Of a stretch of 46,136 nucleotides of DNA, positions 1-46,136 are shown piece by piece (position 1 is the first letter of the stretch; each line of letters begins with the position of its first letter). The notes under the pieces are model-generated. The model made no database searches and was not told the DNA's origin. It was given only the letters and a program-made list of their open reading frames with translations. The translations under genes and the position numbers were made by a program. Source of the stretch: a virus; IMG/VR virus record IMGVR_UViG_3300029595_000010, positions 1-46,136 of that record, one strand, 5' to 3'.

Positions 1-99
1 CCGTGGCGGAGGCCGCGCCCCGATCGCCTGTGGCGGAGGCCGCGCCCTGATCGCCCGTGGCGGAGGCCGCGCCCTGATTGCCCGTGGCGGAGGCCGCGC
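1..99. repeat. Terminal direct repeat, left copy (circularisation/assembly overlap)
   Basis: Exact 99-nt match to 46038-46136, read by eye. Confidence 0.9.
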
Positions 100-305
100 C
101 CCGATAGCCCGTGGCGGAGGCCGCGCCCTGATCGCCTGTGGCGGAGGCCGCGCCCTGATTGTCCGTGGCGGAGGCCGCGCCCTGATTGCCCGTGGCGGAG
201 GCCGCGCCCCGATAGCCCGTGGCGGAGGCCGCGCCCCGATAGCCCGTGGCGGAGGCCGCGCCCTGATCGCCCGTGGCGGAGGCCGCGCCCCGATTGCCCG
301 TGGCA
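1..305 (-). repeat. 27-bp tandem repeat array, left part (11 units), coding
   Basis: Invariant 17-nt core gtggcggaggccgcgcc plus a 10-nt segment c[c/t]gat[c/t/a]g[c/t]c[c/t]; period 27. Confidence 0.95.
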
Positions 306-664
306 TGATTCTTTTTTCCGGCGTTTGCGCGCTTGATCGCGTCCTCAAATCCGATTTGGTTTTTGATATATTCGATCTGCGCTTTCACGAGGCCGGGAAC
401 GCCAATCTCAGCCTTCAGTATCATTTTCTTCGCAACAATCTTGCTATCCGATGATTCACGTTCGGCAGATACCTCTTCTGCCTCTGCCTCAAAGTACCGG
501 CTTGCATTCGGTGCGTAGTGGTTCAGCACATCGATAGGCTGCTCGCACGCGTGCAAACCTGCTTTGCATAGGTTCGGTTCACCGTCAAAAACAGCGGTTT
601 CGCCCAGCGTGTATTGCATTCCACGGCATTTCATTTGCCTGTCTGTCCCTTTGTAAACTTTCAT
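1..664 (-). CDS. N-terminal part of the nonapeptide-repeat protein (gene split by contig linearisation; continues 46037->45589). Resembles the prophage family I recall as DUF7666
   Basis: ATG 664-662 preceded by AAGGAGG. Translates MKVYKGTDRQMKCRGMQYTLGETAVFDGEPNLCKAGLHACEQPIDVLNHY..., then ATG[NDY][RQ]GAAS repeats. Open to position 1. Confidence 0.8.
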   Translation of the reverse strand, partial: MKVYKGTDRQMKCRGMQYTLGETAVFDGEPNLCKAGLHACEQPIDVLNHYAPNASRYFEAEAEEVSAERESSDSKIVAKKMILKAEIGVPGLVKAQIEYIKNQIGFEDAIKRANAGKKNHATGNRGAASATGDQGAASATGYRGAASATGYRGAASATGNQGAASATDNQGAASATGDQGAASATGYRGAASATGNQGAASATGDQGAASATGDRGAASAT

Positions 665-673
665 GTTTCCTCC

Positions 674-895
674 TTATGCCGTTTTCTGCTCAAATCCCAG
701 CGCCCCGGCCAGTTCCGATTCGCTGTACTCATCCTGCACATAGTCCCCGAAGCACTCCGTATGTACCAGCACTCCGTTGCAGCAGAAGCGCTCAGTACCT
801 TCATAGATGTCTTCCCGGCAGTATGCGCACTTGCCGACGATTACCGGCTCCGGCTCGTCGATGCCGAGATAGAGGTTCTCACCATCGTATCCCAC
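674..895 (-). CDS. Small Cys-rich hypothetical early protein (73 aa, GTG start)
   Basis: ORF track 674..949 trimmed to a GTG 9 nt after AAGGAGG; CxxC...CC...C pattern. Confidence 0.5.
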   Translation of the reverse strand: MGYDGENLYLGIDEPEPVIVGKCAYCREDIYEGTERFCCNGVLVHTECFGDYVQDEYSESELAGALGFEQKTA

Positions 896-1229
896 GGCGT
901 TTCGCCTCCTTTTCCAAGAGCTTTTCGCACAGGCTCTGCACGCTTGCACAGTGCATAGCCTCGCAGAGCTGCTGCAGAACTTCTGCGCCGCCGTCCGTCA
1001 GCCGGAAATAATACCGGTTCACCTTCCGGCGCTTATCGCTGCGGTTCTTCGGCGCGTCCATCGCCTTGATCGCCGCAGCTGCGTCGGGTTCTAGCCTGAC
1101 ACCGTATTTCTCCGGGTGTTCGCATTGCGAAAGCAGAACCTTATTAAACTTCGGGTAGTCGGCCCGATGTACCGCGTCGACGCAGGCTTTCGCACCATGC
1201 CGGACGCGGGAATCCGTTAAACTTGACAT
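879..1229 (-). CDS. Hypothetical early protein (116 aa)
   Basis: ORF track; ATG with GAAAGGAA upstream; lies in the co-directional early operon. Confidence 0.6.
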   Translation of the reverse strand: MSSLTDSRVRHGAKACVDAVHRADYPKFNKVLLSQCEHPEKYGVRLEPDAAAAIKAMDAPKNRSDKRRKVNRYYFRLTDGGAEVLQQLCEAMHCASVQSLCEKLLEKEAKRRGIRW

Positions 1230-2981: not shown

Positions 2982-3182
2982 TCATGCTCCGAGAAACCGC
3001 AAAAACGGCTCTCTCGGGATCTTCACTCTGTGCTCGCTTGTGCAGCAGACCGGGAATCCAAGCTTTTCAGGCTGTTCCCTCGCCATCAAGCGAAGCCATT
3101 GCGGGGTACAGCCGAGCACCTGCGCCGCCTCGCTTGCGAGGATTGTGGGCTTTGACATTGCCCGGATATCGTCCAGCGTCAT
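2982..3182 (-). CDS. Excisionase-family/MerR-like HTH protein (66 aa); candidate Xis or early regulator
   Basis: ATGA overlap with the Cro-like gene; LASEAAQVLGCTPQWLRLMAREQ...VKIPREPFLRFL resembles HTH_17. Confidence 0.65.
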   Translation of the reverse strand: MTLDDIRAMSKPTILASEAAQVLGCTPQWLRLMAREQPEKLGFPVCCTSEHRVKIPREPFLRFLGA

Positions 3183-3388
3183 TTTTCCTCCTTTCTGCTT
3201 CCCTCAATTGCCTCGTCCAGCTCCTGCGGCGTGCAGCCGTAGAGACGGACGAGCTTTTTCTTGTACTTCCGGGCGATTCCGTTTTTACCGAGCTCCCAAT
3301 TCGAGACGGCGATGATCGAGACATCAGCTCGCCTTGCAACATCTTTTTGCAGAAGCCCAGCCCGCGCCCGAAGCTCTTTCAATGTCAA
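3179..3388 (-). CDS. Cro-like XRE-family HTH regulator (69 aa, TTG start)
   Basis: C-terminal part of ORF 3179..3946. GGAGG sits 9 nt before the TTG. LKELRARAGLLQKDVARRADVSIIAVSNWELGKN is a classic XRE HTH. Confidence 0.65.
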   Translation of the reverse strand: MTLKELRARAGLLQKDVARRADVSIIAVSNWELGKNGIARKYKKKLVRLYGCTPQELDEAIEGSRKEEK

Positions 3389-3421
3389 GCGCTCATTCCT
3401 CCATTCCTTAATTAAGTTTTG

Positions 3422-3451
3422 TTGACCGCAGCGCCCCAGACGTGCTATACT
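3422..3451 (+). promoter_or_regulatory. Candidate sigma-A promoter TTGACC-18-TATACT in the switch region
   Basis: Hexamers read directly; back-to-back with the Cro-like gene. Confidence 0.4.
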
Positions 3452-3490
3452 GTCCTTAGCCCTTTTAGGTAAATTTGGGAGGTGGTTTTC

Positions 3491-3547
3491 ATGACCAAAC
3501 TTTTGAACTTGCCAGTTCCAGACCAAAGAAACGGCGTGATGCGTTAG
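3491..3547 (+). CDS. 18-codon mini-ORF (MTKLLNLPVPDQRNGVMR) with a strong RBS
   Basis: GGGAGGTGG 5 nt upstream of the ATG; too short for the ORF track. Confidence 0.3.
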   Translation: MTKLLNLPVPDQRNGVMR

Positions 3548-3788
3548 GGCAAGGGGCAGCGCCAGAACTGCCAAAGTGAGCGGCGCGTCCATAGAAGCGC
3601 AAGTTCGTTTTGTGTCAGGATGGCATTGCCGAGCCGGTGGAAAGAACTCTACCAATTCGGACGGATGCGAAGTAATGCAGACGACCATCCTGTGCAGCGC
3701 GTTCTGGTAAACAACTCTGGGGAAACCCGCTCGTGAACGAACCACGGGCGGCTTTTCTTTACGCCGCAGCCAAATTAAGAGCTTTATC

Positions 3789-3817
3789 TTGACAAAGCCA
3801 TGTATAGCCGTTATTAT
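3789..3817 (+). promoter_or_regulatory. Near-consensus sigma-A promoter TTGACA-17-TATTAT reading into the cargo/lysogeny genes
   Basis: Hexamers and 17-nt spacer read directly. Confidence 0.6.
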
Positions 3818-3999
3818 GTAAGTGTCAGCCAACAAAATATTGTCCATACGCCCGCAAAACGAAGATTCGGATGGGGATTGGTTTTTTGTTGCCTTGATTA
3901 AGCTCTGTAAGCATATTATATACAACGTTATGTCGTATGTCAACAATACTTACGATGAAATGTTGTACAAATTGGATTGACTTTTTTTGTGAGGTTTTT

Positions 4000-6553: not shown

Positions 6554-7129
6554 ATGTCCGCAATACAGGATCTCGCTCCGTTTATCGGCGCGTATCAGGG
6601 GAAGATCAGAAGGGCAAAAGATGCAAGCGGGATGACGTTGGAGGAGCTGTCGAACGAGTCCGGCGTTTCCTTCTCTGCCGTGAGCCGATTATACGCTGGA
6701 ACACAAGCGGATCCACGGCTTTATAACTCGGCTGCGCTATGCAAAACGCTCGGGTTGTCGCTCGACGAGCTGTTCGGCCTTGAAAATCCCGTCGGAAGCC
6801 CGGAAAAGCTGACCAAGCAGATCCATCATGTCGAGCTTGAAAACGCCAAGCTGGAGGCAACAGCGGCCGCGCAAAGCGCACAGATAAAGTCTACACATAC
6901 AATGTGTTACGTCCTCGCCCTGTTTTGTATGCTGCTCTCCTTTTCTCTGATTGCCTGCCTTGTGGCGGATGCGCAGATTCGTAATGCAGGATTCATTCGA
7001 AACGGAGATTTGTCCGTAACCGCATGGGCGTGTATCGCCCTGATCGTAGGTTCAGCGCTGGCTTCGGCAATTACTTTCTACGCGATCCGAAAAGAACGTG
7101 GAGGGAAACATGGAGTGCATCAAGTGTAA
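6554..7129 (+). CDS. Membrane-anchored XRE-family HTH regulator (191 aa)
   Basis: N-terminal HTH (MTLEELSNESGVSFSAVSRLYAG) plus two C-terminal hydrophobic helices (CYVLALFCMLLSFSLIACLV; AWACIALIVGSALASAITFYAI). Confidence 0.8.
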   Translation: MSAIQDLAPFIGAYQGKIRRAKDASGMTLEELSNESGVSFSAVSRLYAGTQADPRLYNSAALCKTLGLSLDELFGLENPVGSPEKLTKQIHHVELENAKLEATAAAQSAQIKSTHTMCYVLALFCMLLSFSLIACLVADAQIRNAGFIRNGDLSVTAWACIALIVGSALASAITFYAIRKERGGKHGVHQV

Positions 7130-8213
7130 AAAAGAAATCCCAGACGGCGCGCCCTACTGTTGCTGGTGCGGAAAAAAACAGGAAGCGCGGCGAAACCGGA
7201 CACGCGGGAACGGGCAGGGAAGCGCTTACCAGCGAGGGAAGACGTGGACGGCGCGTTGGACAGAAAGAACTTACCTAGACGAGAACGACAAGCTTCGGCA
7301 AAGGATGCGAACAAAAGGCGGGTTTACATCAAAGCGCGCCGCCCTCCAATATGCTGCAAACCCTCCGAAGGAAGAGCAGCGAAGCCCCACTCTCAGAGAA
7401 TACTACAAAACATATCTGCGTGGGGATTATCTATCCTTATCGGCTGATCGTCAGGGCGCGGCGGAAAAGGCATTCGAGCGCATGAGAGAAATCGCCGACC
7501 GTGAGATCGACGCGCTTACCATCGCGCAGATACAGGATGTTATCGACCGCAACGCCAGCACCTATTACACACGGAAAGATATGAAAACCGTCCTCTCCCA
7601 CTGTTATAACCTCGCAATTGCAGAAAAGCAAACAACCGTGAATCTTGCAAAGTACATAAAGCTTCCGGAATTGGAAGAGAAGTCGCCGGAACCGTTTACC
7701 GACGCCGACGTAAAAAAGCTATGGGAAGCGTATGCAAAAGACCACTTCGTTGGGTTTATTTTAACGATGATTTATACCGGCATGATGCCCGGTGAGCTTC
7801 TGAAACTCAAGAAAGATATGATTGACTTTGAAAAGAATGAGATCGTCCGAGGCGGCATAAAGACAAAGAAGCGGAAGGAAACGCCTATGGTCTTCCCGGA
7901 TTTCGTTGCGCCGGTGCTGCATGAACTATGCGAAGAAAGCAAATCGCGCGTCGGAAATATCTGCTGCATAAACAAAGATAATTTTTACAAGAGATATTAT
8001 GAGTGTTTGGAGCTCGCCGGAGTGCAAAAGCTACCGCCTTACTCATGCCGCCATACAACCGCTACAGCCCTCGCGATGAAAAACATCGACCCGTTTACGA
8101 TCAAGGAAATCATGCGCCACACGAAGATAACGACTACCCAACGGTACGTACACCCGGACATGAAAGGCATGGTCGATGCCGTAAATCAGTTGCAAAGCGA
8201 CTCGCCAGAGTGA
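7110..8213 (+). CDS. int: Tyrosine integrase with N-terminal zinc ribbon
   Basis: MECIKCKKEIPDGAPYCCWCG..., then CRHTTATALAM...IMRHTKITTTQRYVH (R..H..R..Y catalytic signature); attP lies immediately downstream. Confidence 0.9.
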   Translation: MECIKCKKEIPDGAPYCCWCGKKQEARRNRTRGNGQGSAYQRGKTWTARWTERTYLDENDKLRQRMRTKGGFTSKRAALQYAANPPKEEQRSPTLREYYKTYLRGDYLSLSADRQGAAEKAFERMREIADREIDALTIAQIQDVIDRNASTYYTRKDMKTVLSHCYNLAIAEKQTTVNLAKYIKLPELEEKSPEPFTDADVKKLWEAYAKDHFVGFILTMIYTGMMPGELLKLKKDMIDFEKNEIVRGGIKTKKRKETPMVFPDFVAPVLHELCEESKSRVGNICCINKDNFYKRYYECLELAGVQKLPPYSCRHTTATALAMKNIDPFTIKEIMRHTKITTTQRYVHPDMKGMVDAVNQLQSDSPE

Positions 8214-14859: not shown

Positions 14860-16353
14860 CTATTCCTCCAGCGCCTTGATGTAGGCATTGCTTCTTGTGT
14901 CCGTCCCGATGGTAGGGATTTCTTTTCCCGCCGCGCTATAATCGCAGTACGCCAGCCCATTCGATGATATGTATGCCGCCTCCCCGTCCGGCGATAGTGC
15001 AATACTGTCGACGCTGCTCCCCAGTACGTCTCCATATACCGGGCCGGATGCTGGAGCGCTGATCGCAATGATCTTTTCCGCTCGATCAGCACTTTCAGAT
15101 TCGCTTGCGGTTTCTGAAAGCACCAAAAGCCCGTTTTCGTATTTGCCGTTCGTATAGTTGTCGAGCGAGTAGCTATCGGTTTTGTAGGAAACTACCTTCC
15201 CGTTTTCCCACGTTGCACCGTAGTCCGCAGAATACCTGTATACCATATATCCGCTATACATCGTGGTTCCCGCACCAGAGAAAGCAGCGTTCACCAGTGC
15301 AAAAAAAGCAATTATATTTGCCCCACAATGGTAAGCTGACATCAGGGCGTGATAGGTGTACGTCGACGGCTGGTTGAAGGACGGAGTTAATTCTTCGATG
15401 TTTACGCTGCTGACTGCCTCCCAGGTCGGATTGATCAGGGTTTTTGCCTTTGAAGTCTCCAGTATGCCGCTGGTGCTACAGTTCAGCTTGTAAAAGCAGT
15501 CCTTTTCTTCGGCGTAAAATACAATTCCGCTGATAAAATCTGGGATGCTTACTATTTCCTTTGTTGTTTGGTTTACGTAGCTGGCACTTACTTCTCTTCC
15601 ATTGTAATTGTTATAGGATCCGTATTCGCCTCTTACTACGTAGATATACAGAACGTTTGGCGTAATAAACATCTTCAGTCCAGCGCTTCCAGGCAGGCTG
15701 CCGCTTGCATATAGCGTAAATGGCGCATCGAGACTATGCGTTGTGTACACTCCGTTTGCCTCTGTGGAGTCTCCGGAAAAAACAGCGTAATAAGTGCCGT
15801 TTGCATACTGCACATCCGATACCAACGAGAGTCCGGGCGGCATATCCGCCTGCTGCGTCCACGTCCCCAAATCGGGCGACGTCCAGAACTTTCTGTCGTG
15901 TAGGCCGACCCATTCCCCATTCAGATACCACATAAATCCAGGTTGAATATTCGATGACTTCAACGCCCACGGAAGCGGCGCGGCAGAGCTTCTGAGCACA
16001 GAAAACAGTTTTGGATACTTCTCCTGTGATACAGTGCGCCCGTCGCACGGCAGCCATGCGTCGGACAGGTCTGTGCGGGCGGTGATAGCGATGTCGCCGA
16101 CTTTGGCCGTACCCTCCGAAAGCTTGCCGAGCGCGTCATTCACGGTCGGGTCGTCCGGCTTCTTCGAGCCGGGCCAGATCTTCGCGGCGGTTGCATCGGA
16201 TAGCAGATTTGCCTTGTTGAGTGGCGTTCCCTCGACGGTGGGCGCGTCCTCGCGCTTGAGGTATTCGTAGTGGTTGAGCGTGCCGTCGGCGTTATAGACG
16301 CCGTAGCGGATCGCGCCGTTGGCTAAAACCTGTGTTGGCTGCCTATCTTTCAT
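14860..16353 (-). CDS. Tail fibre / receptor-binding protein: tail-collar N-terminus plus a C-terminal domain with a BNR/Asp-box
   Basis: ORF 14860..16377 trimmed to the ATGA-coupled ATG; GDIAITARTDLSDAWLPCDGRTVSQEKYPKLF; canonical Asp-box SADYGATW. Confidence 0.8.
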   Translation of the reverse strand: MKDRQPTQVLANGAIRYGVYNADGTLNHYEYLKREDAPTVEGTPLNKANLLSDATAAKIWPGSKKPDDPTVNDALGKLSEGTAKVGDIAITARTDLSDAWLPCDGRTVSQEKYPKLFSVLRSSAAPLPWALKSSNIQPGFMWYLNGEWVGLHDRKFWTSPDLGTWTQQADMPPGLSLVSDVQYANGTYYAVFSGDSTEANGVYTTHSLDAPFTLYASGSLPGSAGLKMFITPNVLYIYVVRGEYGSYNNYNGREVSASYVNQTTKEIVSIPDFISGIVFYAEEKDCFYKLNCSTSGILETSKAKTLINPTWEAVSSVNIEELTPSFNQPSTYTYHALMSAYHCGANIIAFFALVNAAFSGAGTTMYSGYMVYRYSADYGATWENGKVVSYKTDSYSLDNYTNGKYENGLLVLSETASESESADRAEKIIAISAPASGPVYGDVLGSSVDSIALSPDGEAAYISSNGLAYCDYSAAGKEIPTIGTDTRSNAYIKALEE

Positions 16354-16847
16354 GTGAGTAATCCTCCTGCGGCGCACTCCGCCGCGCCGGTGTGGCGAAA
16401 AGATTTTGCAACGTTGACGATTAAGTCCTCGCAGAGCACCAGAATGCGCTCGATATCATTTGCGCCGGTGTAGGTCAGGCGCGCCAGCTGCGGCGCGTCC
16501 GGCGTCCCGGCAGGATACGCAAGCGCGTCGCGAATGTCTTGTATCTGCCGCCGGTATTCCGCCGCCTGTGAGGCCGTTTGGATGTCCGTGACGGCCCAAT
16601 CGGTTTTCGCCGTCCATGCAATGCTCCTGCCGCAAATCGAGCTGAGGCGGACCGCCAGATAGTTCAGGGCCGTTCCCACGCGATTGAGATCAGCGGCGTT
16701 GTACGCGCCCTTCATCCCGGCCAGCCATTCCGCCTGCTCGGCTGCCGTCATGGCCGCGAACCCCTTCGCCGCCAGCTCCCGCACCCGCTCCACATCCGCC
16801 TGCGTGCGGTCGGTGACGAGCGTAACGATGATAGTCGTGGTGTCCAT
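16350..16847 (-). CDS. Tail-fibre-module protein (165 aa)
   Basis: TDRTQADVERV...KGAYNAADLNRVG motif, common next to fibre genes (from memory). Confidence 0.65.
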   Translation of the reverse strand: MDTTTIIVTLVTDRTQADVERVRELAAKGFAAMTAAEQAEWLAGMKGAYNAADLNRVGTALNYLAVRLSSICGRSIAWTAKTDWAVTDIQTASQAAEYRRQIQDIRDALAYPAGTPDAPQLARLTYTGANDIERILVLCEDLIVNVAKSFRHTGAAECAAGGLLT

Positions 16848-42527: not shown

Positions 42528-43358
42528 TCATGTCTTGTCCTCCTTGTTTTCCGCAAGCATTCGCTCGACCGCCTCCAGCTGGAACGCATCAAGTTCGTCC
42601 CCGTGGCGCTGCACGCCATGTTGCATCCGAGCGGCCCCCTTCGACACAGGCCCCATCACCCTGTCCACAGCCGCACGTTCCAGTGGATTCAGTTCGTCGT
42701 GGTGCCCCTGCACACCGTAGCCGGGCTTTGCAGCGCGGCCAAGCGACGCAGGGCGTGTGCTGGCCTCTTTCAGCCAGTCAAACACGATCCCCTTGTAATT
42801 TGCGGCCATAGAGCGGGTTATCACGTCGATCATGGCTTCCTCGCCGTATCCCTCCGCAGCCTTTGTGATCTGCGTAACAAGGCTTTGCAGGCCAACAGGC
42901 TTATACTCCTCCCGTCGTTCTCCCTTGTACGTCACCCATTTTTCAACTGCTTCGCGCAGCGTGGGGGGTAGGGGGGAAAGAATACTGTCCTTGTCCTTGT
43001 CCTTTGTCCTTTTCCTTTGTCCATAGCTTTTTTTGCTTTCCTCGGAAAGCATTTGCTTTTTTTGCTTTTCGTTGCTTTCGTCAAAAGCATTTGCTTTTTC
43101 GGATTCAGGCCGACCGCCCTGCTTTCCTGCCTCACTTCTGGACGCGGAGACGGCTTTTTGCGCCGCTACGGATTCGTCAATGTCCCGTCGAATCGCAGGC
43201 CAAATGAAACGTTCACTCCCGCTGAACTCTGGCTCTGCTCCCGACTCGCGATAATCCATCGCGGCCAGCACCAAGCGCCCCACCTCAGCAGCACTGTACG
43301 CCTCGAAATAGCTCCTGTAACTCAGCCACAGCTTGACGTATTCCTTTTTATCTCCCAT
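42528..43358 (-). CDS. DUF6291-like replication-associated protein with a C-terminal tandem ~25-aa repeat
   Basis: KLWLSYRSYFEAYSAAEVGRLVLAAMDY; GVQGHHDELNPLERAAVDRVM / GVQRHGDELDAFQLEAVERML. Confidence 0.6.
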   Translation of the reverse strand: MGDKKEYVKLWLSYRSYFEAYSAAEVGRLVLAAMDYRESGAEPEFSGSERFIWPAIRRDIDESVAAQKAVSASRSEAGKQGGRPESEKANAFDESNEKQKKQMLSEESKKSYGQRKRTKDKDKDSILSPLPPTLREAVEKWVTYKGERREEYKPVGLQSLVTQITKAAEGYGEEAMIDVITRSMAANYKGIVFDWLKEASTRPASLGRAAKPGYGVQGHHDELNPLERAAVDRVMGPVSKGAARMQHGVQRHGDELDAFQLEAVERMLAENKEDKT

Positions 43359-43368
43359 CCGTCAGCCA

Positions 43369-43821
43369 TCAGACCGGCAGGTCGTCGTCGCCAATCTCCA
43401 TCTGCGGCATATCCGGCGCAGAGAACGGAACCGGCGTTGTGCTCGGCAGCGGCTTGAACTCCGAAGAGGCCGGTGCAGCGGCAGAAGCATTCTGCCCGTC
43501 CCGCTTGCTGTCGCCGAAATAAACGCTTTCTGCGACGATCTCGGCAGTCTTGCGCTTGTTTCCGTCCTTGTCTTCCCAGTTGCGGATCTGCAAACGGCCA
43601 GAAACGACGGCCATGCGGCCCTTTGAGAAATACTTGCTGACAAAATCAGCTGTATTCCGCCATGCGACAACATCAATAAAATCCGTTTCCTTCTCCGCGC
43701 CCTGCGCCGCGTAATCGCGGTCGCAGGCAAGCGTGAAGGACGCAACAGAATTTCCGCTTTGCGTCTGCCGAAGCTCAGGGTCACGGGTCAGGCGGCCCAT
43801 CAGGACGATTTTATTCAGCAT
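43369..43821 (-). CDS. ssb: Single-stranded DNA-binding protein
   Basis: MLNKIVLMGRLTRDPELRQT...; acidic tail DDDLPV. Confidence 0.9.
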   Translation of the reverse strand: MLNKIVLMGRLTRDPELRQTQSGNSVASFTLACDRDYAAQGAEKETDFIDVVAWRNTADFVSKYFSKGRMAVVSGRLQIRNWEDKDGNKRKTAEIVAESVYFGDSKRDGQNASAAAPASSEFKPLPSTTPVPFSAPDMPQMEIGDDDLPV

Positions 43822-44647
43822 TTGCAGCGCCCTCCATGACCTCGCCGGTTGCCTGATCGACCGGCATATTGTCTACCATTTCTGCATCTGCGACAACAGT
43901 AGGAACGCTGAACATATCGTCGCTGATCTCCGTCTTGACCGTGCTGTCCTGCGCGATCTGCCGAACAAATTCAGACTTCATCGGCGCGTATTTCAGAACT
44001 TTTTTCAGAACGGTCTTCTTTGCCATCTCTTCAAAGTTGGTCTGCCACGGGCCGGAGCTGTATGCCTTGCTGTACTTCTGCGCATGGGCGCGAACATCGT
44101 CCAGCGTCATGATCTCGAAGCCGTAGCCGCCGTCCTTTGTCTTGAACATGGCCCAGACGTTCACCGGGTCGCCGCGATCTCCGTTCAGCTTCGGGATAAA
44201 TTTCAGGCTGCATTCCGTGCCATACTCGGCAATCAGCGTATCGTTCGCGTGTCCGACTTGCGCCTGGATCGTCTGGATCTCGCCGGAGCGGTATGCAAGG
44301 TCGATCATGCCTTTGTATCCAAGTTGGAACTGACATTCCAGACGGTTCTGCTTCCCGTTCCAATACGGGATCAAGTATGCCTGCCCAAGCGGCGTGTTCG
44401 GCTCCAAGCCAAGCTGTGCGGCGGTCATCATCGCGCCGAGGAAAGATTGCGGCGTACACTGCGCCAGTTTCGGATTCGTGGAAAGCGCGGAAAGCGTGAT
44501 CCGCGTGAACCGTTCCGGCGTCATAACGGAGGGAAGCGCTTTCTTGATCTCACCCTCCATCTGCTTGATATACTGCTGCATTGTCGGATTTCCACCGCTC
44601 TGTGCCTTCATAGCCGTCTGCGCGGTTGCCTGCTGGATTTTGTTCAT
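43811..44647 (-). CDS. recT: RecT-family single-strand annealing recombinase
   Basis: ...FLGAMMTAAQLGLEPNTPLGQAYLIPY... Confidence 0.9.
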   Translation of the reverse strand: MNKIQQATAQTAMKAQSGGNPTMQQYIKQMEGEIKKALPSVMTPERFTRITLSALSTNPKLAQCTPQSFLGAMMTAAQLGLEPNTPLGQAYLIPYWNGKQNRLECQFQLGYKGMIDLAYRSGEIQTIQAQVGHANDTLIAEYGTECSLKFIPKLNGDRGDPVNVWAMFKTKDGGYGFEIMTLDDVRAHAQKYSKAYSSGPWQTNFEEMAKKTVLKKVLKYAPMKSEFVRQIAQDSTVKTEISDDMFSVPTVVADAEMVDNMPVDQATGEVMEGAANAE

Positions 44648-45588
44648 GATTCTTCCTCCTGTTTCATTTCTGTAATTTTGAATGGCCGGGCCTGTACCGT
44701 TTTATAAAACGGTGCCAAATCGATATCCGGGTATGCCTCTTTAAAGGCTTTGGGCTGAAACGTCTGCCGGTTTTGCTGCTTCCAAGAGACGTTGTAGCCG
44801 TTGCAGGCGGCCCGCTCTGCCGTACCCATATCGAGCTTGATCGTGTTTTCAATCTCGCGGCTGCGCTCCGCCAGTGCCGCCGCCTGACGTTTGATCTGCA
44901 TATACTCAGACAGCAGCTGTTCGCGTCCGAACAAATCAAGCTGTTCGCCGCTGCTATCGGCATAAACCGTGCTGATCGCGTCCGTCGTCGCCTCCGAACC
45001 GTCCGGTGCAGGCGGGGTGTCTTCCTCGACGCATCGCCAGAAAAGCTTCTCCGCCTCCATCAGCGCGGAGATTTCCGCCTCATCGCGCTCGAGCGTGTAT
45101 GTAAAGAATCCGCGCCCGAAGACAAGAACCGCCAAATACCAACGGTCTAGGCCGGTGACGGCCAGATAATGCACGCACTGGCAATAATATTTCTCCGGGA
45201 AATCCACACCGTTGAACTGCCGAATGTCAAGCGTCGAGGTTGTCTTGCATTCCAGCCCTGCATTTTCGCTGGAAATTCGCCTGTCAATGTCTGCGTGCGC
45301 CCACGGATACGCGGGGTTCCGAATGATGTAGTTGCAGCGCCGCACCTTTTTCCCGGACGCTTCCTCAAAACGCTTCGCAACATACTCCTCGAGATCTCGG
45401 CCGATCCGCATAGCCTCTGTGTCTTCCTTTTCCGGAAGACGCCCAGTCTTGTCCATCCATACCGTGTACGGGCTTGCAAAGCGGCTCATGCCGATAACAG
45501 CTGCCGCGTCACTCCCACCGATGGACTTTCTGCGTTCCTCCAGCCATTCTTCGCGGCTCATCTTCACAGTGGAGATTGTATCGAGCAT
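44644..45588 (-). CDS. YqaJ-type (lambda Exo-like) exonuclease
   Basis: REEWLEERRKSIGGSDAAAVIG...; coupled to recT. Confidence 0.85.
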   Translation of the reverse strand: MLDTISTVKMSREEWLEERRKSIGGSDAAAVIGMSRFASPYTVWMDKTGRLPEKEDTEAMRIGRDLEEYVAKRFEEASGKKVRRCNYIIRNPAYPWAHADIDRRISSENAGLECKTTSTLDIRQFNGVDFPEKYYCQCVHYLAVTGLDRWYLAVLVFGRGFFTYTLERDEAEISALMEAEKLFWRCVEEDTPPAPDGSEATTDAISTVYADSSGEQLDLFGREQLLSEYMQIKRQAAALAERSREIENTIKLDMGTAERAACNGYNVSWKQQNRQTFQPKAFKEAYPDIDLAPFYKTVQARPFKITEMKQEEES

Positions 45589-46136
45589 TTACTCTACCTC
45601 CATAAATTCGTCGTTCTGCAGCCGATACCAGGTACCGGCCTTGATCTTCTCGCCGTCGACAATTGCCGCTTTGACGGCAATAATCGGATGTGCCTCCCCG
45701 TCCCATTTGCCGCGCTCAACACAGCAGATCGCGCAGCCAAGTGCGCCCATTGCTTTACACTCATATCCAGCTGCAAGAGCAACACCGGCTTTGCCCGTGG
45801 CGGAGGCCGCGCCCCGATTGCCCGTGGCGGAGGCCGCGCCCTGATCGCCTGTGGCGGAGGCCGCGCCCTGATCGCCCGTGGCGGAGGCCGCGCCCTGATT
45901 GCCCGTGGCGGAGGCCGCGCCCCGATAGCCCGTGGCGGAGGCCGCGCCCTGATCGCCCGTGGCGGAGGCCGCGCCCCGATTGCCCGTGGCGGAGGCCGCG
46001 CCCCGATAGCCCGTGGCGGAGGCCGCGCCCTGATTGCCCGTGGCGGAGGCCGCGCCCCGATCGCCTGTGGCGGAGGCCGCGCCCTGATCGCCCGTGGCGG
46101 AGGCCGCGCCCTGATTGCCCGTGGCGGAGGCCGCGC
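45589..46136 (-). CDS. C-terminal part of the nonapeptide-repeat protein (continuation of 664->1)
   Basis: Repeats then ...[73 protein letters not shown] at 45591-45589 abutting the exonuclease ATG. Confidence 0.8.
45795..46136 (-). repeat. 27-bp tandem repeat array, right part (12 units plus a partial one)
   Basis: Same core and variable positions as 1-305. Confidence 0.95.
46038..46136. repeat. Terminal direct repeat, right copy
   Basis: Identical to 1-99. Confidence 0.9.

Follow-up and report, generated by a model that had tools for sequence, protein, structure and literature searches.

A tandem mini-repeat with two variable residues in a temperate phage early protein of the DUF7666 family

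Described proteins with variable repeats or loops

Repeat proteins in which few residues vary on a constant scaffold, such as the TALE, PPR, PUF, ankyrin and LRR proteins, have been informative on molecular recognition and are now used as engineering platforms. The TALE repeats of Xanthomonas and Ralstonia are like the array described here in four respects: the DNA of one unit is almost the same as that of the next, variation falls on two fixed adjacent residues, these residues are drawn from a small recurrent alphabet, and unit number and order are changed by recombination. TALE units are, however, α-helical hairpins of 33-35 residues which form a superhelix tracking double-stranded DNA with one base per unit, whereas the units described here have 8-9 residues, are predicted to form a β-strand and a tight turn, and belong to a protein in which no DNA binding was detected. 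This protein is a phage early protein and has no sequence relationship to the TALE proteins. A previous reading of the same DNA, made from the letters alone (the sequence-only reading), proposed an analogy to a TALE-type code. The analogy holds for the pattern of variation and fails for unit length, fold and homology. In the present case the evolutionary signature of such fixed-scaffold repeats is found in a unit of only 8-9 residues with a predicted β-structure.

The RTX β-roll (GGxGxDxUx) shares with the array the nine-residue, Gly-rich tandem units and a regular β-structure. The Ca-binding Asp, the hydrophobic position and the consensus of RTX are all absent from the unit found here, ATG[DNY][QR]GAAS; RTX proteins are secreted toxins with no fixed variable di-residue, and some DUF7666 relatives have 8-residue units. 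An RTX β-roll was rejected on the missing consensus and on the lack of any RTX family match. The Gp38 adhesins of the T-even phages also combine an invariant Gly-rich scaffold with short hypervariable stretches which set the specificity and are under arms-race selection. They differ in being tail-fibre tip proteins built as a polyglycine-II sandwich with variable-length loops and no tandem repeats at the DNA level; the gene described here lies in the early region and its repeat is a predicted β-strand. The variable proteins of diversity-generating retroelements (DGRs), such as Mtd of the Bordetella phage, likewise have few codons of the NAY type on a constant scaffold and an alphabet rich in Asp, Asn and Tyr. 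A DGR needs a reverse transcriptase and a template repeat and mutates adenines only, and here the diversity is spread over tandem units.

The protein belongs to DUF7666 (PF24703), a large family of phages and prophages, and to PHROG 4433; both are labelled as of unknown function in the databases. In the literature searched, a limited collection and so not a proof of novelty, no description of DUF7666, PF24703, PHROG 4433 or the di-residue rule was found, nor any binding partner, phenotype or experiment for a member of the family.

The repeat gene and its phage genome

The window, by which we mean the whole stretch of 46,136 nucleotides that was analysed (IMG/VR record IMGVR_UViG_3300029595_000010), is a circular contig of about 46 kb from a temperate siphovirus of the gut, and its two ends meet within a 27-bp tandem array. 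TRF finds the array at the start (1-304, 11.3 copies, 93% matches) and at the end (45791-46136, 12.8 copies, 93% matches). The sequence-only reading placed the array at 1-305, which covers only about half of it; the rest is at 45791-46136. The window has two exact terminal overlaps, of 18 nt and 99 nt, and each of them keeps the register of the repeat. The 99-nt overlap lies inside the array (positions 1-99 are exactly 46038-46136), and its removal leaves a circle of 46,037 bp with a 370-aa open reading frame on the minus strand (start codon 662-664, stop codon 45589-45591). The closed array then has 20 units ATG[DNY][QR]GAAS followed by the degenerate unit ATGKAGVAL. Closure at the 18-nt overlap would give 23 units instead, so the 20 units reported earlier are right for one closure and not for the other. 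With the 99-nt closure the string of variable residues is identical to the one first read: NR DQ YR YR NQ NQ DQ YR NQ DQ DR NQ YR NR DQ YR NQ DQ DQ NR. In an exact protein look-up neither closure had a match in the collection searched. The parts of the gene and the neighbouring features are as follows.

674..949, minus strand: small Cys-rich ORF immediately upstream (DUF2175, E 4.4e-4, below cutoff)
383..664, minus strand: DUF7666 N-terminal domain, aa 1-94 (Pfam PF24703)
305..382, minus strand: linker, aa 95-120, ending in ...KKNH before the array (AlphaFold helices at aa 89-104 and 106-115)
1..304, minus strand: array units 1-11 (8-304) and the first 7 nt of unit 12 (1-7) (TRF, overlap)
45802..46136, minus strand: 12 complete units (45802-46125) and an 11-nt partial unit; units 9-20 of the closed array after removal of the 99-nt overlap
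45589..45801, minus strand: degenerate unit ATGKAGVAL and C-terminal β-rich domain, aa 301-370 (translation, PHROG 27197)
44644..45588, minus strand: YqaJ-like exonuclease, immediately downstream (PF09588, E 3.3e-32)
43811..44647, minus strand: RecT recombinase (PF03837, E 9.9e-55)
43369..43821, minus strand: single-strand DNA-binding protein, SSB (PF00436, E 8e-35)
42528..43358, minus strand: DUF6291 protein gene
3179-3946, minus strand: HTH repressor-like gene (lysogeny)
7098-8213, plus strand: integrase (lysogeny)

Continuity of the array over the junction of the window is independently confirmed by another contig, L081 (45,962 bp), in which the array is internal and which aligns at 99.7-99.8% on both sides of the junction. 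The number and order of the units in the window array is assembly-dependent. The array is a recurrent assembly break point in this phage group, since 33 of 80 related IMG/VR contigs break inside it and several genome assemblies have scaffold N-gaps there; in others the translation of the array is frameshifted. The array in this way accounts for a recurrent break point in gut phage genomes. A switch of frame inside the array, sometimes followed by a switch back, is common among database proteins of the family (P0121, P0171, P0215, P0216, P0238, P0267, L091 and L111) and gives runs such as TRRPPATPP and VQLRLLA; these are either assembly or sequencing errors or real frameshift variants.

The sequence-only reading likened the N-terminal domain to DUF7666, and aa 1-94 do match PF24703, over positions 1-94 of the 95 in the profile and with 91.5 bits where the cutoff is 27 (E 4.8e-26). 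The same proposal for the C-terminal domain is not supported: a profile search gave no significant Pfam or PDB sequence match, and the domain is known only as PHROG 27197 (E 1.2e-37). AlphaFold models it with a pLDDT of 84-90. The model YadA_head, for a head β-roll with 14-residue SVAIG-type repeats, was matched by only 2 of 33 C-terminal segments, with a best E of 0.051. There is also a match of aa 219-365 (window 45604-46044, minus strand) to the NCBIfam model for E. coli YdhT (PRK09946; E 1.4e-5, 24.8 bits against a cutoff of 300), which spans the end of the array together with the C-terminal domain and probably reflects composition.

The confidence of AlphaFold is low over the DUF7666 head (pLDDT about 50-70). 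In aa 1-40 of the head (window 545-664) C13, C33 and H38 are invariant among 97 homologues and C40 is nearly so. At least one distant member, P0137, has lost both C13 and C33 and keeps H38 and C40. There may thus be a pair of Cys residues and, apart from it, a His-x-Cys site, which might bind metal or be catalytic.

The early operon on the minus strand consists of small ORFs, the DUF7666-repeat gene, the genes for the YqaJ exonuclease, RecT and SSB, and the DUF6291 protein gene. The repeat gene is directly upstream of the exonuclease, RecT and SSB, in agreement with the earlier statement that it heads the recombination block. The late genes of the window include terminase, portal, major head protein and tape measure. 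Matches to the small upstream Cys-rich ORF were found by tblastn in 12 related loci, a subset of the relatives. The recombination module downstream is mosaic and not conserved among relatives. A family member in Ihubacter has a G39P-like helicase loader, SSB and an MT-A70 methyltransferase as neighbours, and one in Acidovorax a DUF2800 PD-(D/E)XK nuclease; distant members are, like the window gene, placed in replication/recombination regions. No match was found to the defence-system models of PADLOC.

Two further observations on the phage genome should be mentioned. Just downstream of SSB, within the DUF6291 gene, there is an AT-rich stretch (42986-43099) with a 13-bp repeat (~3 copies) and a 38-bp repeat (~2 copies) of the GAAAGCAAAAAAAGCAAATGCTTT type; the rest of the genome is GC-rich. 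This stretch may be a replication origin embedded in the gene. Between the tail genes and the lysogeny region a 505-aa ORF (14860-16377, minus strand) had no PHROG match at E 1e-5 or better and gave only a sub-threshold 16-bit sortase domain match with NCBIfam; it may code for a new type of receptor-binding protein.

Variation between and within arrays

In the window array 23 raw in-register units vary at only 4 of the 27 nucleotide positions. Two of these are the sites of the di-residue: position 10, the first base of codon 4 (A in 9 units, G in 9, T in 5), and position 14, the second base of codon 5 (A in 13, G in 10). The remaining ones are position 6, a silent ACG/ACA change in 4 raw units or 3 units of the closed array, and position 8, a Gly to Asp change (GGC to GAC) in 1 unit. 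The silent change had been counted once, which is too few; the single Gly to Asp exception was correctly noted. The closed array furthermore contains a 115-bp internal direct repeat with an offset of 8 units.

The restriction of variation to a fixed di-residue is found throughout the family, in homologous proteins, DNA arrays and distant isolates. The proteins of 120 homologues differ in length in 9-aa steps and contain 7-20 full units (8-21 with the degenerate terminal unit). In this set unit positions 1-3 and 6-9 are conserved in at least 97% of the full units, position 4 is Y, D or N with rarer residues, and position 5 is Q, R or L with rarer residues. The substitutions are thus confined to the same two positions and are not spread over the unit, which was the comparison that the sequence-only reading had proposed as a check.

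A search with the N-terminal domain gave 2638 representative clusters (50% identity), which span Clostridia, Proteobacteria and others. Arrays occur in 82 of the best 150 of these 2638 clusters; the unit has 9 residues in 62 of them and 8 residues in 20. The cores of distant units differ from the one in the window (SAATNTG, GAATAG, AHSATTG and SALTGG are examples). Of 50 analysable arrays, 37 have their two most variable columns side by side, and in each of these the pair comes directly after the consensus Gly; the median share of the column entropy held by the two columns is 1.0. The first variable residue is D, Y or N in 81% of the units, and the second is mostly R, Y, S, Q, G, W or C. The window protein has the architecture of the DUF7666-repeat family: the head, an array of 8-9-residue units with the di-residue after Gly, and a C-terminal domain of the type ...VDG..IK.DTWY.L.NGEFVE.

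The finished chromosome of Ihubacter sp. rT4E-8 carries an array of 16 units of 24 nt in which the 18-nt core is 100% identical and all variation is in the last two codons. Isolates of Acidovorax, Pseudoxanthomonas and Absicoccus show the same pattern. These isolates bear on the question whether the variation is an artefact, caused by chimeric assembly of a heterogeneous population or by sequencing errors in the repeat. Such an origin could be suspected since the contig ends inside the array, as do 33 of 80 relatives, since scaffold gaps and frameshifted translations occur in other arrays, and since there is a 115-bp internal repeat. Errors, however, would not fall on the same two non-synonymous bases in more than 100 independent assemblies; a finished chromosome and draft genomes of isolates have the pattern too, so that it cannot stem from faulty assembly; and units 4-10 of the window array, with the rare Gly to Asp and ACA markers, are identical in the independent sample that gave L081. 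We regard an artefact as hardly credible. Only the number and order of the units are at risk.

The nucleotide comparison used 64 related arrays of at least 8 units. Between arrays the synonymous third positions mostly have a diversity of 0.40-0.74 (0.09 at Gly codon 3), and the Ser codons alternate between TCN and AGC, while the first and second positions of the core codons have a diversity of 0-0.09. The core peptide is fixed although the synonymous sites differ, and the core is therefore held at the protein level and not at the DNA level: it is maintained by purifying selection on the amino-acid sequence. A DNA-level function of the array as replication iterons was rejected on the same grounds, as synonymous sites and the Ser codon family change between lineages and the peptide is conserved.

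Within arrays the synonymous diversity is only 0.03-0.16, which is explained by concerted evolution. The units are homogenised by in-register unequal recombination, which also adds and removes blocks of units. At the two variable sites the diversity within arrays is 0.61 (codon 4 base 1) and 0.45 (codon 5 base 2), or 4-6 times the synonymous diversity, in essentially every array; the first site is polymorphic in 64 of 64 arrays (100%) and the second in 62 of 64 (97%). That the same two positions vary in these arrays and in the 120 homologues places the pattern far beyond chance. The choice of residues is limited: of 1059 units, 15 have a C at codon 4 base 1, which gives His, and none has a C at codon 5 base 2, which would give Pro. 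The two residues are kept polymorphic within every array with a restricted alphabet, here D/N/Y followed by Q/R/L.

Turnover of the arrays can be followed in phages which are otherwise nearly identical. L081 is 99.8% identical to the window over 13.4 kb, and the non-repeat parts of the gene are identical at 573 of 573 nt; its array has 12 units against the 20 of the closed window array, and its units 4-10 are those of the window, rare markers included. The arrays of P0272 and P0271, also of 12 units, lack exactly units 11-18 of the window array and otherwise equal it; the 115-bp direct repeats flank the missing block. Six of seven pairs of loci with flanks at least 99% identical differ in the array, mostly by in-register block indels. 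Since these phages differ by block indels and not by point changes, nothing points to hypermutation. The junctions of segment B in the window array are unique, and this segment must therefore have been present in the reads. It should be noted that most arrays come from short-read assemblies and that some of the copy-number differences may be assembly collapse. Identical flanks with very different arrays were also seen in some relatives (L005 vs L010, L006 vs L055, L058, L063; 32 against 9 units, or only 2-4), where the contraction could be real or an assembly collapse.

The order of the di-residues along the arrays is near random; at lags 1-8 no order or periodicity was found (|z| at most 2.2), and nothing suggests that the di-residues spell a structured 'word'. 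Together with the position of the variable residues at a predicted exposed turn, the random-like order would fit a neutral explanation, namely that these are the only unconstrained positions in a structural or spacer repeat, or mutational hot spots, and that the variation has no function. We consider this unlikely. Neutral sites cannot exceed the synonymous diversity under concerted evolution, as the two sites do in essentially every array, so that selection keeping the di-residues mixed is best supported. Neutrality is also at variance with the restricted alphabet, in which His is rare, Pro is absent and D/Y/N predominate family-wide, and with the block indels in place of point changes between near-identical phages. 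A local mutational bias could in principle produce the excess diversity at the two sites. This is countered by the finding that the same amino-acid positions vary in lineages where the DNA of the unit is quite different, which excludes a hot spot tied to one DNA sequence.

A more specific possibility is a targeted mutagenesis of the two codons, for instance by a DGR. The first variable codon, NAY, recalls the AAY codons diversified by DGRs, and the Asn/Gln allele has A at the variable bases. But none of the ORFs that are long enough for a reverse transcriptase was recognised as one, a template repeat is missing, and the other adenines of the unit do not vary (within-array diversity 0.012 at base 1 of ACG and 0.112 at base 2 of AAT). 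The near-identical phages, too, do not differ by point changes at the variable sites. Targeted mutagenesis is in our opinion extremely improbable. We also considered that variation might stabilise the repeat against recombination and rejected this, as synonymous changes would do this just as well and the observed variation always keeps to the two residues.

Predicted fold and possible function

An AlphaFold model was built with 97 sequences and has a mean pLDDT of 75.5, about 80 in the array, and a pTM of 0.66. In the model each unit of the array has a strict 7-residue β-strand and a 2-residue non-strand segment. The predicted turn is G plus the first variable residue and the strand is [Q/R]-G-A-A-S-A-T in the register of the unit; the turn thus contains the first variable residue, and with the second one the following strand begins. 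The absence of Pro at the second position fits a strand. Gly followed by Asn or Asp is the classic preference of a type II' two-residue hairpin turn. AlphaFold is, on the other hand, prone to give regular β-models for perfect repeats, and a second run with a gap-free alignment of 18 close homologues was poor (pLDDT 46). The β-solenoid for which the sequence-only reading proposed a test agrees with the model in so far as an all-β repeat is predicted; the array may be a flattened solenoid or an antiparallel meander.

A Foldseek search against the PDB gave no solved analogue of the model (best E 5.2), and against BFVD only other uncharacterised DUF7666 proteins and one 'pentapeptide' protein (E 4e-4). 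A pentapeptide-repeat or DNA-mimic solenoid was rejected, the period being 9 or 8 and not 5 and the net charge of the arrays averaging -0.4 (sd 2.75), where a DNA mimic would have a strongly acidic surface.

Profile searches point to a quite different structure, a collagen-like triple helix in which the unit is read as the triplets G-x-y, G-A-A and S-A-T. The Pfam Collagen model is matched with E 1.3e-13, collagen chains in the PDB with E 1e-27 (profile), and the Scl and Lcl adhesin models of NCBIfam with E about 1e-19. The NCBIfam matches have only 55-70 bits against cutoffs of 325-500, and the HMMER alignments are low-confidence compositional matches. Every third 'Gly' is a Ser and there is no Pro; 8-residue units, found in 20 of 82 homologous arrays, break the triplet period and keep the di-residue rule; and AlphaFold gives β-strands. 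We therefore hold a collagen-like helix to be very unlikely.

The explanation we prefer is that the gene codes for a cytoplasmic early protein of a temperate siphovirus, composed of the DUF7666 head, a helical linker, the 8-9-residue mini-repeats and a small β-rich tail domain. Each unit would form one short β-strand, joined to the next unit by the two-residue turn G-[D/N/Y], and the variable residues would stack as ladders of exposed side chains on an invariant scaffold of Gly, Ala, Ser and Thr. The pattern of variation suggests that the ladder is a diversifying recognition or binding surface; Tyr, Ser, Asp, Asn, Arg, Gly and Trp are the residues which dominate antibody paratopes and minimal synthetic binder libraries. 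Selection would maintain the mixture of variable residues and the shuffling of units would supply new combinations, while the ladder may recognise a variable partner early in infection, a macromolecule of the host or of a rival phage. The DUF7666 head would supply an effector or anchoring function. Taken together, the all-β repeat scaffold, concerted evolution and a ladder of turn residues diversified by selection as a recognition surface have in our estimate about an even chance of being the right description.

A more ambitious model is a modular code of the TALE/PPR/PUF type, in which each unit contacts one element of a periodic ligand (single-stranded DNA, RNA, double-stranded DNA or a polysaccharide) and the di-residue specifies which one. 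The formal pattern of TALE is shared, with its near-identical units, fixed di-residue and small recurrent alphabet; D, N, Q, R and Y are typical base- or sugar-contacting residues and would suit such contacts; and the gene adjoins genes for single-stranded DNA recombination. The units have only 8-9 residues and are predicted to be β, however, and we know of no precedent for a recognition code in such units. Nothing in the results points to nucleic-acid binding or to one target per unit, no nucleic-acid-binding family was detected in the domain searches, the downstream recombination module is not conserved among relatives, phages that are 99.8% identical have different arrays, and the order of the di-residues is near random. 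The last two points speak against the idea that the array has a fixed target in the genome of the phage itself. We find a modular code quite unlikely.

There is correspondingly a small chance that these proteins are programmable binders made of 8-9-residue β-strand units, in which the di-residue after Gly specifies the target unit by unit and is reprogrammed by recombinational shuffling. If so, the target would be a nucleic acid, a glycan or a periodic protein surface, and the family would be the β-strand counterpart of the TALE, PPR and PUF codes with the smallest known coding repeat.

The DUF7666-repeat family is very common and sits in the early region of temperate phages. This region is the usual home of genes for host take-over and counter-defence. 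The di-residue rule gives a direct experimental handle, and cultivable lysogens exist. The giant-virus proteins matched in BFVD have DUF7666 domains fused to repeats annotated as ankyrin or DUF4116, which suggests a modular head that can be joined to binding domains of various repeat types.
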